DNA of 64,000 bases from a virus (IMGVR_UViG_3300020204_000007:96001-160000), one strand, 5' to 3'. Positions 6,122 to 8,974 are shown, counted from the first letter of the stretch. The notes: generated from the sequence alone by a model not told the origin. Program-made: numbers and translations.

Positions 6122-6156
6122 TTGGCACGGTTTTTGCTACAGCAAATTGCGTGCCA
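6122..6156. promoter_or_regulatory. head-to-head pair of sigma-54 -24/-12 boxes
   Basis: TTGGCACGGTTTTTGCT (+, 6122-6138) and TGGCACGCAATTTGCT (-, 6141-6156); exact GG-N10-GC. Confidence 0.8.
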
Positions 6157-6166
6157 TTGCACGGGT

Positions 6167-6195
6167 TTAAGTTTACCAATAGCGGTTGCCGATAA
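6167..6195 (+). promoter_or_regulatory. sigma-28-type promoter, long-spacer class
   Basis: TTAAGTTT-N13-GCCGATAA followed by 5' hairpin and GGAGG RBS. Confidence 0.7.
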
Positions 6196-6243
6196 ATATA
6201 TTGTAAGGAGCGAGTGTTCCTTACAAAACATCGGAGGTTTACC

Positions 6244-6672
6244 ATGGCAAAAATTGCTCGCTACGCTGGCCGGGAGTTGCAAATCGTAAACGCAGTAATT
6301 GCCGCTTTTGGCGGCAAGGAAATTTGGAACCAGGATTTAGCATCCTGGCTCCGCAGCCAGTTTCCCGACGTGCTCGGCGGCACCCGCGCCGCCGAAAATT
6401 TCCTGGAAGCCGTCGGCATGGCGGATTTTGCCAGCGCCCACTCCCGCACCGGCAAGCCCCGCACCCTCGGATACGCCGCATTCCGCGGCGTGCGCCGCCA
6501 CCGGGCTGGCGAGCCTGCCCACACCGAGCCTCGCGCTCGGTACTGGGTTATTCCCAGTCGACCCTACACCGCCCTGCTTACTAAGCAGGAAGTATTCGCC
6601 CGCCTAGGGGCAGCCGTGCCACGGCCGCTCCCCACCAAGGAGCGCACCACACCCTACCACAAGGTAGGGTAA
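6244..6672 (+). CDS. basic early protein, related to 8457-8864 and 9494-9883
   Basis: GGAGG RBS, ATG 6244; IVNAVIAAFGGKEIWNQDLASWLRSQFPDVL aligns with paralogues; followed by GC hairpin. Confidence 0.75.
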   Translation: MAKIARYAGRELQIVNAVIAAFGGKEIWNQDLASWLRSQFPDVLGGTRAAENFLEAVGMADFASAHSRTGKPRTLGYAAFRGVRRHRAGEPAHTEPRARYWVIPSRPYTALLTKQEVFARLGAAVPRPLPTKERTTPYHKVG

Positions 6673-6775
6673 TCCCGCGGGGGGCGCAAGCCCCCAACAC
6701 TCCCCCACATTTTAGTGGCTACGGGGGACGTAGCATCCACACCCAACGGGGGTACAGCCCCCACAGGAGGTTTCC

Positions 6776-6946
6776 ATGTCCAACAACCAACGCTCCATCC
6801 TGTCCGCACCCAACCCTTTCGACCCATCCAACGACTGGGTGGACGAGTGGGATATGCCCACCGACCCCTACGAACTCCTGGACCGGGAGTACCGTAGGGA
6901 GGAAGCCCTCGAACTCGCTAAGGAACGAAAATACGGAAGGGGGTAA
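6776..6946 (+). CDS. small acidic hypothetical protein (56 aa, not in ORF track)
   Basis: AGGAGG RBS; MSNNQRSILSAPNPFDPSNDWVDEWDMPTDPYELLDREYRREEALELAKERKYGRG. Confidence 0.7.
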   Translation: MSNNQRSILSAPNPFDPSNDWVDEWDMPTDPYELLDREYRREEALELAKERKYGRG

Positions 6947-7030
6947 TACCCCTCCGCTCCCACCACATTTAGTGGCTCGGTGGGACGAGCAAAACAACCA
7001 ACGGGGGCTCCGCCCCCACAGGAGGATACT

Positions 7031-7285
7031 ATGTCCAACAACAACTCCATCCTCGTTTACCGCGCATATGCCACCGAGGGCGTCCATGCCCTCGTGTTGG
7101 CGAGCACTGCTCGCTCGTTCCACCCCGACGAGGTCGGGTGCTACCGACGGGAGGTGGATGTCCTCCTCCCCTGCGGGCGGCGGGTAACCGCCCGCAAGGA
7201 GGCCGGGTTCGACGGCCTCGGCTCCGGCCAATACTCGGGGTGGGGCATCCCCGAGGAGGACGGGGGTTACCACCTGCAATGGTAG
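7031..7285 (+). CDS. hypothetical protein
   Basis: AGGAGG RBS, MSNNNSIL start resembling 6776 gene; terminator follows. Confidence 0.7.
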   Translation: MSNNNSILVYRAYATEGVHALVLASTARSFHPDEVGCYRREVDVLLPCGRRVTARKEAGFDGLGSGQYSGWGIPEEDGGYHLQW

Positions 7286-7291
7286 TCCCAC

Positions 7292-7319
7292 GGGGGGGTA
7301 ACCCCCCCATCCTTTTTTT
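7292..7319 (+). terminator. intrinsic terminator
   Basis: G7-TAA-C7 stem then T run. Confidence 0.8.
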
Positions 7320-7348
7320 ACTACTGGATAACAGAGCTCTGTTATTAC

Positions 7349-7432
7349 TTGGCACAGTTATTGCTTATTGTTCCTTTAACAGAATTCTGTTATTACTTGG
7401 CACATAACTTGCTATAGCAACAACTATGCCAA
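7349..7432. promoter_or_regulatory. three sigma-54 boxes (one single, one head-to-head pair)
   Basis: TTGGCACAGTTATTGCT 7349-7365(+), TTGGCACATAACTTGCT 7397-7413(+), TTGGCATAGTTGTTGCT 7416-7432(-). Confidence 0.8.
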
Positions 7433-7451
7433 TGGAATCTGTTATTTAAAT

Positions 7452-7480
7452 TTAAGTTTACCGTTAGTGGATACCGATAA
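7452..7480 (+). promoter_or_regulatory. sigma-28-type promoter, long-spacer class
   Basis: TTAAGTTT-N13-ACCGATAA, then TGTAGG..CCTACA hairpin. Confidence 0.7.
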
Positions 7481-7525
7481 ATATTATGTAGGAAATAACT
7501 CCTACAAACATCGAAAGGGTTTACC

Positions 7526-7777
7526 ATGGGAAACATTTTCGCTGCCGAAAAATTCGCGAAGCAATGCACCGCATTGGATAGCTGCGGAGTGGAATATTGC
7601 AGGGGGGTGGTTGTCCTCCGCTACGGGGGGACACTTGGGATAATGTTTCCCGATGGTTCCTGCGCATTTGTCGAGGTGGTGCATGGCGACGAGGATGTGG
7701 CCGACCAGCTCCGAATCGAGGTGGATACGCCCTTCGGCAGTAGCGTCCACTACCGATGGATGGACGAGGCGGGGTAA
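7526..7777 (+). CDS. small acidic cassette protein (similar to 8024-8251)
   Basis: Between promoter and terminator; FPDGS resembles CSDGS in neighbour. Confidence 0.75.
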   Translation: MGNIFAAEKFAKQCTALDSCGVEYCRGVVVLRYGGTLGIMFPDGSCAFVEVVHGDEDVADQLRIEVDTPFGSSVHYRWMDEAG

Positions 7778-7798
7778 CCCCCCCCGCCTTCCTTTTTT
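7767..7798 (+). terminator. intrinsic terminator
   Basis: AGGCGGGG..CCCCGCCT stem and T run. Confidence 0.75.
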
Positions 7799-7826
7799 GT
7801 TCACCTTAACAGAGCTCTGTTATTAC

Positions 7827-7912
7827 TTGGCACAGTTGTTGCTTACGACACCTATTACAGAATTCTGTTAAAATGTTTGGCATACAACTTGCTATAGCAA
7901 CAACTATGCCAA
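7827..7912. promoter_or_regulatory. three sigma-54 boxes (one single, one head-to-head pair)
   Basis: 7827-7843(+), 7877-7893(+), 7896-7912(-). Confidence 0.8.
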
Positions 7913-7949
7913 TGGAATCTGTTATGGAAACCAAATCTGTTATTAAAAT

Positions 7950-7978
7950 TTAAGTTTACCTTTGTTGGGTACCGATAA
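7950..7978 (+). promoter_or_regulatory. sigma-28-type promoter, long-spacer class
   Basis: TTAAGTTT-N13-ACCGATAA, then TGTAAGC..GCTTACA hairpin. Confidence 0.7.
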
Positions 7979-8023
7979 AGGTGTTGTAAGCAATGCAGCT
8001 TACACTAACAGCAGGGGTTTGTT

Positions 8024-8251
8024 ATGCAAGCACACACACTCGCAACGATTTTGGAGCAAGGCAATGTTATGGCATTCCATGGGAACGACGGCAGGATGTT
8101 CCTCCAAGTGTTGTGCTCGGATGGCTCGGAATTAGTTGCGGAAATGGACGACACAGGCGGTGTTGTGGATTTACGGGTGTACAGGGAAGCGTTGGACAGG
8201 GAGGGGTTGGAGTTCGACAGGGTTGTTGTCGAAGCAGGGCTGGCTCCCTAA
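8024..8251 (+). CDS. small acidic cassette protein
   Basis: AGGGGG RBS; flanked by promoter and terminator. Confidence 0.75.
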   Translation: MQAHTLATILEQGNVMAFHGNDGRMFLQVLCSDGSELVAEMDDTGGVVDLRVYREALDREGLEFDRVVVEAGLAP

Positions 8252-8253
8252 TC

Positions 8254-8280
8254 AGGGGGGGCTCTGCCCCTTCCTTTTTT
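8254..8280 (+). terminator. intrinsic terminator
   Basis: G/C stem and T run. Confidence 0.7.
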
Positions 8281-8308
8281 GTTCACCTTAACAGAATTCT
8301 GTTATTAC

Positions 8309-8344
8309 TTGGCATACAACTTGCTATAGCAACAACTATGCCAA
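8309..8344. promoter_or_regulatory. head-to-head pair of sigma-54 boxes
   Basis: TTGGCATACAACTTGCT-AT-AGCAACAACTATGCCAA. Confidence 0.8.
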
Positions 8345-8381
8345 TGGAATCTGTTATGGAAACCAAATCTGTTATTAAAAT

Positions 8382-8410
8382 TTAAGTTTACCTTTGTTGG
8401 GTACCGATAA
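8382..8410 (+). promoter_or_regulatory. sigma-28-type promoter, long-spacer class
   Basis: TTAAGTTT-N13-ACCGATAA, then GCGAGG..CCTCGC hairpin. Confidence 0.7.
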
Positions 8411-8456
8411 AGGTTATGCGAGGGATGTTCCTCGCCTTTATTAAAGGGGTTCCAGT

Positions 8457-8864
8457 ATGTTTAGCAAAAATAATCCTGCACATGTGGATATGGTTATCGA
8501 GGCAATTTTGGTAAAATATGCGGGGTGCATTGTCCACAACGCGGAACTAAAAGCGTACCTGTGCGCGGAGCTTCCCGACCTGTTCCCATCCGGTAGGGCG
8601 GATGGGGCGGTGGAGTACTTGGCCGCTGTGCAATTCCGCTCCTGTGTTAACAAAGCAGGAGTTGCCGGAGTTGCCTTCCTCGAAGGTGTAAAGGAAGGCG
8701 GCAAGCGATTTTGGAAGGTTCCGATGGACACTTCCGCAACTGTCGCCAAATCCGACCTCCGAATCGAGGAACTCGGTTCGGTTATCCACACTCGCAAATC
8801 GAAGTTGTCCTTCGGCGAGTATGTGGTAGCTGCAACCAAAAAACCCGAACCCAAGGAAGGGTAA
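8457..8864 (+). CDS. cassette protein, close paralogue of 9494-9883
   Basis: Shares FPSGRADGAVE, GV.G.AFLEG.K.G.KR.WKVP. Confidence 0.85.
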   Translation: MFSKNNPAHVDMVIEAILVKYAGCIVHNAELKAYLCAELPDLFPSGRADGAVEYLAAVQFRSCVNKAGVAGVAFLEGVKEGGKRFWKVPMDTSATVAKSDLRIEELGSVIHTRKSKLSFGEYVVAATKKPEPKEG

Positions 8865-8865
8865 C

Positions 8866-8893
8866 AGGGGGGGCATACCCCCCTTCCTTTTTT
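8866..8893 (+). terminator. intrinsic terminator
   Basis: G/C stem and T run. Confidence 0.7.
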
Positions 8894-8921
8894 GTTCACT
8901 TTAACAGAGCTCTGTTATTAC

Positions 8922-8938
8922 TTGGCATAGTTGTTGCT
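8922..8938 (+). promoter_or_regulatory. single sigma-54 box with no downstream sense gene
   Basis: TTGGCATAGTTGTTGCT pointing into a terminator about 40 bp away. Confidence 0.7.
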
Positions 8939-8974
8939 TACTGTCCCTTTAACAGAGCTCTGTTATATAGCAAC

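Follow-up and report, generated by a model that had tools for sequence, protein, structure and literature searches.

Sigma-54-type boxes in a phage cassette island as candidate enhancer-dependent, partly bidirectional promoters

Introduction

What reads an array of sigma-54-type promoter boxes lying between the small gene cassettes of a phage, and what would it do there? The window analysed here is a 64,000-nucleotide stretch, bases 96,001-160,000 of the 169,059-bp IMG/VR phage record IMGVR_UViG_3300020204_000007, which CheckV rates complete. At 6-9 kb of this window lies an island of small cassettes whose guanine-plus-cytosine (GC) content is 46-54%, against about 35% for the phage, and boxes of the form TGGCAY-N5-TTGCT (Y, C or T) recur in it, singly and head to head. 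Among bacterial sigma factors, sigma-54 stands alone in forming stable complexes on DNA that do not fire by themselves. To our knowledge, it has hardly been considered in phage biology beyond Pseudomonas phage YuA.

We propose that the boxes are sites of the host sigma-54 holoenzyme, acting as enhancer-dependent and partly bidirectional promoters within recombining terminator-promoter cassettes, and we put the probability of this reading at about one half. We infer all three of its parts, namely sigma-54 as the reader, transcription start at the boxes and the identity of the activator.

Results

The boxes are confined to the island and share one exact geometry. The pattern TGGCAY-N5-TTGCT has 11 exact matches in the window, all within 6123-8938, starting at 6123(+), 6141(-), 7350(+), 7398(+), 7416(-), 7828(+), 7878(+), 7896(-), 8310(+), 8328(-) and 8923(+). 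Dinucleotide shuffles gave a mean of 0.08 matches and a maximum of 1. A sequence-only reading made before this analysis had described an array of 11 consensus boxes with exact spacing and had expected the enrichment here alone (its plus-strand starts are 1 lower, the preceding T having been counted in). Both claims hold: GG and GC lie exactly 10 bp apart in all 11 boxes, as in TGGCAC-N5-TTGCW, and the rest of the 169-kb record has zero further matches. A reversed control pattern has none in the whole record. With their flanks included, the window boxes read TTGGCA(C/T)(G/A).

Most boxes are paired. Eight of the 11 form four head-to-head pairs with a 2-bp gap, AC in pair A (6139-6140) and AT in the other three, and the remaining three stand singly on the plus strand. 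Within a pair, the N5 spacer of one arm is never complementary to that of the other. Only three sequence types occur: pair A, pair B in three copies, and the single box in three copies. The pairs at 7398, 7878 and 8310 belong to repeat family D2 (61-95% identity), and the singles at 7350, 7828 and 8923 to repeat family D1 (75-88% identity). Because the repeated types sit inside duplicated inter-cassette modules, the 11 boxes are not 11 independent events. The earlier argument for selection rather than simple duplication survives in part: the copies inside D1 and D2 add nothing to it, while pairs A and B differ in spacers and flanks and keep all sigma-54 determinants and the 2-bp gap. Selection on GG-N10-GC is supported by this comparison, by the relatives and by the wider survey described below.

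Orientation separates the boxes into two groups. Of the seven plus-strand boxes, six have a start codon 106-181 nt downstream, in a gene of the same orientation. The four minus-strand boxes and box 8923 point at no gene, as had been noted; they face terminators in antisense or the terminator at 8979-9002 instead.

Paired geometry is compatible with promoter function. Placing the predicted +1 at 12 nt past the -12 C, the geometry of pair A puts divergent starts at 6149 (+) and 6130 (-), 19 bp apart and without overlap, and that of the 7398/7416 pair puts them at 7424 (+) and 7405 (-), again 19 bp apart. Symmetric bidirectional sigma-70 promoters have starts 18 bp apart, and binding in one orientation excludes the other (PMC10268837, PMC12825309; Warman et al. 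2021). Because those promoters share the layout, a start inside the partner box is no bar to promoter function, and the sequence-only reading was mistaken in taking the pairing to rule out promoters. The likeness covers the pseudo-symmetric core, a polymerase that could sit in either orientation and divergent starts about 18-19 bp apart (predicted here). The difference is that symmetry there resides in the -10 hexamer, whereas here two complete -24/-12 elements are interleaved.

Relatives of the island preserve the oriented box. Only four were found, L013/L219 among the viral contigs and L271-273 among metagenome contigs, and they share a protein family at 47-62% identity and the same 18-bp repeat array. 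That array (L219:6890-7080; L273:1-190) is better conserved than the adjacent protein, which is about 27-30% identical, and in every case it immediately precedes the first sigma-54 box. The boxes of these sister islands are again island-confined, mostly single, and oriented in the direction of the genes. Read by eye, orthologous boxes vary at box positions 6-10 only (C/T, G/A and the spacer), and TGGCA and TTGC are invariant across L219 and L271-273, and with them GG-N10-GC. Thirteen sister-island boxes (L219, L271-273) have the arrangement TTGCT-N25-CCGATA, exactly 25 nt ahead of the CCGATA of a sigma-28-type promoter. The same composite across IMG/VR gave 50 matches, about chance by estimate with the sister contig set apart, and the coupling of box to sigma-28-type promoter is for that reason taken as lineage-specific.

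The pair is the variable part. L219 has one pair, in a gene-free gap (5600-5750) between two direct repeats of about 45 bp; at the corresponding place (1137-1193) of L273, a contig 94% identical, the pair and one direct repeat are absent, an indel of about 100 bp. By this comparison the pair module is cleanly gained or lost between L219 and L273, and the expectation that relatives would conserve the paired geometry fails. As far as these sequences go, the unit under conservation is the oriented box and not the palindrome. This speaks for a reader of the sigma-54 type more than for a generic dimeric binder, and also against pairing being required.

A wider survey places the same pair in many phages and in very few bacteria. 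The 2-bp-gap pair occurs in 28 other IMG/VR contigs of 34-61% GC, with varied, non-complementary spacers, and at only 5 places in a bacterial collection of 596 Gb (one genome each of 185,579 species); two of the three bacterial genomes with the pair encode RpoN. With the gap relaxed to 0-30 bp, the number of matching IMG/VR contigs exceeds 119. Among the matches listed, head-to-head gaps are commonest at 2-5 bp; tail-to-tail and tandem spacings likewise have preferred values, and alternating arrays result. Gaps between divergent genes account for 34 of 58 scorable pair-bearing gaps (59%) versus 172 of 1,172 background junctions (15%), a figure inflated by related contigs (80 loci with one terminase family). 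Such a preference would be the pattern expected from bidirectional promoters.

The flanks of phage boxes also resemble those of sigma-54 promoters. Across 1,033 distinct phage boxes, at positions left unfixed by the retrieval and counting patterns, -27 is T in 63%, -20 is G in 65% or A in 27%, and -19 is a purine in 68%. The extended sigma-54 consensus of Barrios et al. 1999 reportedly has Y at -27, G or R at -20, R at -19 and W at -11, and the flanking positions of the phage boxes fit it. The window boxes are one base off Salmonella sites bound in chromatin immunoprecipitation, for example upstream of rpoH (PMC3844500). No boxes were present in the distant capsid relatives SP-10, LysYB1 and SJC03 (144-167 kb). 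A search for a recurrent protein family common to this phage and about 200 other box-bearing loci found none, and with no shared phage protein a conserved host factor is the simplest reader.

The survey also brought up a distinct setting. Arrays of up to nine alternating boxes, in about 80 small and unrelated contigs of phages, precede by 200-400 bp an operon with a small gene (145 or 295 aa), the large terminase gene and the portal gene. They are often near contig ends and often separate this operon from a divergent one (examples are L062:29-228, L080:35-244, L171:6945-7145 and L212:3409-3609).

In the island, the boxes stand in series with a second type of promoter. Each gene downstream of boxes was held to have its own sigma-28-type promoter, and this is borne out by copies of repeat family D4 at 6166, 7451, 7949 and 8381, before genes A, D, E and F. 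The island form is TTTAAGTTTACC-N10-CCGATAA; the main consensus, CTAAAGTTAGAT-N9-CCGATAT, stands upstream of about 25 genes at 9-41 kb of the window. Sigma-70-like promoter matches are at chance level (5 vs 4.5 expected). A clear phage sigma factor was not found, the search giving only a weak region-4 match in a 188-aa protein (L009:1291-1857).

These observations suggest the following mechanism. The boxes would be -24/-12 recognition sites of host sigma-54 RNA polymerase within a repeated inter-cassette control module. Plus-strand boxes would act as conditional promoters upstream of, and in series with, each cassette's sigma-28-type promoter, and could thus give the island genes a second input. 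The head-to-head pair would be the symmetric two-way form, accepting polymerase in either orientation but only one at a time; the leftward start of a pair in this island would meet no gene and yield antisense or non-coding RNA only, or none. The modules themselves would have been duplicated and reshuffled by recombination, like the PeSL cassettes of T4-type phages. Such recombination would account for the three-fold copies and for a half-module at 8866-8965.

The plus-strand cassettes follow a common order. Upstream come a G-rich terminator, an AACAG-N4-CTGTT palindrome, 5 bp, the single box and a second palindrome; then 5 bp, the pair, a sigma-28/SigD-type promoter, a leader hairpin, a ribosome-binding site and a small gene. 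In place of the usual module elements, the first plus cassette is preceded by 18-bp-period repeats (5844-6117; about 7-10 units of TGTnnAA-N5-TATACAC; families D3 and D5) with an invariant ACACTGT core and TGTA-N9-TACA half-palindromes, a candidate enhancer (upstream activating sequence), operator or iteron array. Directly downstream are pair A (6123-6156; boxes 6123-6138(+) and 6141-6156(-)), the sigma-28/SigD-type promoter in its island variant TTTAAGTTTACC-N10-GCCGATAA followed by the 5' leader hairpin (6166-6205, +, D4), and gene A (6244-6672, +), a 142-aa divergent member of the A/F/K paralogs with a predicted winged-helix-like fold.

Module 1 opens with the intrinsic terminator (7292-7319, +, D6) of gene C (7031-7285). 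A D1 unit (7330-7391, +) follows, in which the palindromes AACAGAGCTCTGTT (7330-7343) and AACAGAATTCTGTT (7378-7391) flank the single box 7350-7365(+); then come pair B1 (7398-7431; boxes 7398-7413(+) and 7416-7431(-); D2 and feature I24) and the sigma-28-type promoter (7451-7490, +, D4) of gene D (7526-7777). The gene D terminator (7766-7795, +) opens module 2, which contains a palindrome (7808-7821), the single box 7828-7843(+) and the palindrome variant ACAGAATTCTGT (7857-7870; whole unit 7808-7870, +), then pair B2 (7878-7911; boxes 7878-7893(+) and 7896-7911(-); I14) and the sigma-28-type promoter (7949-7988, +, D4) of gene E (8024-8251). The next module is without the single-box unit. 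It begins with the gene E terminator and the palindrome AACAGAATTCTGTT at 8290-8303 (together 8254-8303, +) and continues with pair B3 (8310-8343; boxes 8310-8325(+) and 8328-8343(-); I15) and the sigma-28-type promoter (8381-8420, +, D4) of gene F (8457-8864), of the A/F/K family.

The plus-strand series ends in the half-module at 8866-8965 (+; fourth D1 copy, I3), made up of the gene F terminator, a palindrome (8903-8916), the single box 8923-8938(+) and a palindrome (8951-8964); it closes on a truncated right arm (TATAGCAACA) with no gene after it. A two-way terminator (8979-9002) then marks the meeting point with two minus-strand cassettes (8990-10160), those of gene H (8990-9250) and gene K (9494-9883). 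Both share with the plus-strand cassettes the sigma-28-type promoter, whose -10 is at 9299 and 9937, and the ACAG-N4-CTGT palindromes, and neither has a sigma-54 box. As an internal control, they show that the boxes are an optional part of the module. Repeated terminator-promoter modules (D1, D2, D4, D6), the half-module and the L219/L273 indel together are features of the PeSL type.

No family was assigned to the cassette genes by Pfam, PHROGs, PDB sequence search or the protein atlas. A, F and K are paralogous ORFans of 130-142 aa, one per cassette (6244-6672, 8457-8864 and 9494-9883(-)), with two copies in L219. Their predicted fold is weakly winged-helix/ROQ-like, with a confident N-terminal part (predicted local distance difference test score, pLDDT, 74; Foldseek E about 0.03), and the proteins are candidate binders of the island palindromes, repeats or leader hairpins. 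Genes B and C (upstream regions 6673-6775 and 6947-7030) are without boxes and without sigma-28-type promoters; they share another GC-rich upstream element comprising CACATTT(T)AGTGGCT, a G5/C5 hairpin and AGGAGG. BLAST against cultured phages returned none or chance matches for the island, and likewise for the 42-nt pair.

The island is also nearly purged of WGA/TCW (W, A or T) on both strands. Over 5808-9330 there is one TGA where 65 would be expected, and TCA and AGA are depleted as well (12 copies for an expected 65 and 14 for an expected 61); the leftover copies are almost all in ACAG-N4-CTGT palindromes and related CTGTT motifs. TGA/TCA occur at 0-1 per kb in the island versus a genome median of 36, and a 1.25-kb block of a sister island (L219:5751-7000) has zero WGA/TCW. 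The island promoter variant TTTAAGTTTACC likewise avoids the AGA found in the main consensus TAAAGTTAGAT. The purge may be linked to a sequence context of thymine hypermodification or to nuclease evasion.

Beyond the island, about 25 promoters with the SigD/FliA consensus CTAAA-N16-CCGATAT (window 9299-41368) each have a leader hairpin and a strong ribosome-binding site downstream. Among the genes in the region under sigma-28-type promoters are those for a MoxR-like AAA ATPase followed by a von Willebrand factor A-like (DUF2201) protein (39458-43130), a ClpP-like protease (17151-17900) and an alliinase-like pyridoxal phosphate enzyme (164-1231). The phage further encodes a DnaE-type polymerase, a DnaB helicase, the large subunit of ribonucleotide reductase and a GroEL-like protein. 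Its capsid protein is only about 25% identical to capsids of Bacillus phage SP-10 and of Lysinibacillus and Bacteroides phages. Outside the window it encodes a 5-hydroxymethyldeoxyuridine (5-hmdU) DNA kinase domain (PF18723, E = 1.6e-24; L010:128-1051, genome 79776-80699). Because of this kinase its thymines are likely modified, and its DNA probably contains hypermodified thymidine, as does that of SP-10, the distant capsid relative.

Discussion

Several observations weigh against promoters read by sigma-54. In the window all four pairs lie in co-directional gaps, leaving the minus-strand boxes and box 8923 nothing to express, and the divergent-junction preference seen elsewhere is subject to the inflation by related contigs given above. 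With the fixed N25 of the relatives, the -35 region of the sigma-28-type promoter would contain the predicted sigma-54 start; the two polymerases would then compete, and the box could equally repress or hold. The probable thymine modification could alter sigma-54 binding. The palindromes stand just 5 bp upstream of boxes, which is unusual for an enhancer.

The activator is the remaining difficulty. A search of the phage for sigma-54, an activator or a sigma-70-family factor gave no matches to PF04552, PF00158 or PF04542, so no Sigma54_activat or Sigma54_DBD gene was found. We rejected the MoxR-like protein, the only AAA protein seen, as an activator; it is without a GAFTGA motif and without a PF00158 match. 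Candidate upstream activator sites are present in the 18-bp repeat array and the palindromes. Because no activator gene was detected in the phage, the proposed promoters are assumed to depend on a host activator or on a phage one that was not recognised.

The same facts lend themselves to the decoy, roadblock or anchor that the sequence-only reading proposed, in which stable closed complexes of sigma-54 holoenzyme never fire. Such complexes would titrate sigma-54, insulate cassettes, shut the sigma-28-type promoter or hold polymerase on incoming DNA. Boxes that face no gene and a phage with no detected activator gene are what this explanation would lead one to see, as are the rarity of pairs in bacteria and arrays in other phages of up to nine alternating boxes, which exceed one promoter's need. 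In the relatives, a closed complex at the box would cover the -35 of the sigma-28-type promoter, and the WGA/TCW-purged island would fit a region exposed early. A sponge, however, needs neither the fixed orientation of single boxes nor their fixed distance to genes, and close relatives do not conserve the paired geometry. Across phages the pairs share with promoters a preference for divergent junctions. Two of the island's own cassettes lack boxes, every cassette is already insulated by a terminator, and first entry of the island DNA, on which an anchor would depend, is an assumption. We consider this explanation unlikely, if a serious one. Its broadest form, in which symmetric pairs in many unrelated phages are capture sites that lock host sigma-54 polymerase in non-firing complexes, is likewise a tentative idea that we doubt; in this phage the pairs, lying in a WGA/TCW-free island that is possibly without thymine hypermodification and exposed early, would gate or shield its first genes and deprive host stress regulons of sigma-54.

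A phage-encoded DNA-binding protein could instead own the sites, their likeness to sigma-54 promoters being incidental. Candidates would be the winged-helix-like A/F/K family here and, elsewhere, the small protein in the terminase small-subunit position. The three A/F/K paralogs of the island and the two of L219, with their weak winged-helix/ROQ-like fold, speak for the former, and the roughly 80 loci with arrays 200-400 bp upstream of terminase and portal genes, a frequent cos/pac location, for the latter. The A/F/K family, however, is absent from the approximately 200 other box-bearing loci, and the same motif accompanies unrelated proteins in the small-terminase position (145 vs 295 aa) and two large-terminase families, which would be unexpected for fast-evolving binders. 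The 16-bp box is moreover asymmetric, with two half-elements one helical turn apart and flanks that fit sigma-54. Within about 20 kb of the island we saw no terminase gene, and on that ground we rejected a terminase (cos/pac) recognition array in the window; the large terminase of this phage was not located, and terminase adjacency holds for the roughly 80 other loci. A phage binder of this kind seems to us rather improbable.

Functionless passengers of a PeSL-like repeated recombination module, brought in from a donor phage where they were promoters, would account for the three-fold duplication inside D1 and D2, the half-module at the island's end, the pair indel with its direct-repeat flanks of about 45 bp in L219 and an island GC of 54% against about 35% for the phage. 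Passengers would not be expected to behave as these boxes do: pairs A and B differ yet keep every sigma-54 determinant and the 2-bp gap, and orthologous boxes in diverged relatives change at tolerant positions only. We regard the passenger explanation as having little chance of being right.

A structural role for the palindromes, whether as cruciform, RNA stem-loop or hairpin promoter of a phage polymerase, is very improbable: single-stranded 36-mers fold better than shuffles (z -2.0 to -3.9), but the spacers are never complementary and leave internal loops of 3x3 to 6x6 in the stems, which led us to reject a cruciform or RNA hairpin, and in addition sequence is conserved rather than pairing, single boxes cannot fold, no Rfam family came near threshold, and the relatives showed no compensatory changes that keep pairing and break TGGCA/TTGC.

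Conditional sigma-54 promoters would have several partial precedents. The earlier statement that no such phage system is described agrees with our literature search, in which no account of phage sigma-54 sites in pairs or arrays came up. The bacterial gene glmY reportedly carries overlapping sigma-54 and sigma-70 promoters (Reichenbach et al. 2009). It resembles the island in that two holoenzymes share and compete for one control region; the partner here is sigma-28-type, and the starts would be offset by about 30 nt, as in the relatives. According to PMC10914365, which cites Ceyssens 2008, phage YuA has promoters of the sigma-54 type in addition to sigma-70 ones. It too would have part of its transcription reliant on host sigma-54, whereas what that source relates of this unrelated siphovirus is isolated promoters, with no symmetric pairs or repeated cassette modules.

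Bacterial sigma-54 promoters (PMC3844500) share the GG and GC 10 bp apart, the extended consensus and, for six of the seven plus boxes, the position upstream of genes. They differ in that the phage boxes meet face to face at a 2-bp gap, stand in series with a sigma-28-type promoter and lie between cassettes; in this phage, moreover, no activator gene was found and the enhancer is a candidate only. The PeSL mobile cassettes of T4-type phages combine a terminator and a sigma-70-like early promoter in modules (Arbiol et al. 2010, PMC2839356). Common to both are repeated terminator-promoter modules around small ORFan genes in a plastic region, with gain and loss by recombination. The promoters here are sigma-28- and sigma-54-type rather than sigma-70-like, and the phage is not T4-like, its capsid being distantly SP-10-related.

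This locus offers a particular vantage point through its cassette context, its informative sister islands and the coupling of its boxes to sigma-28-type promoters. The 36-bp pair would be a compact, two-way, activator-gated promoter design and is directly testable. With a sigma-28-type regulon and a purged island adjoining, the locus also suits the question of how modified phage DNA is read by alternative host polymerases. If diverse phages do wire accessory or control-region genes to sigma-54, part of the timing of phage genes would depend on the enhancer-binding proteins and the physiology of the host. Phage and host would then be coupled at a new level, through symmetric two-way sites almost absent from bacteria.

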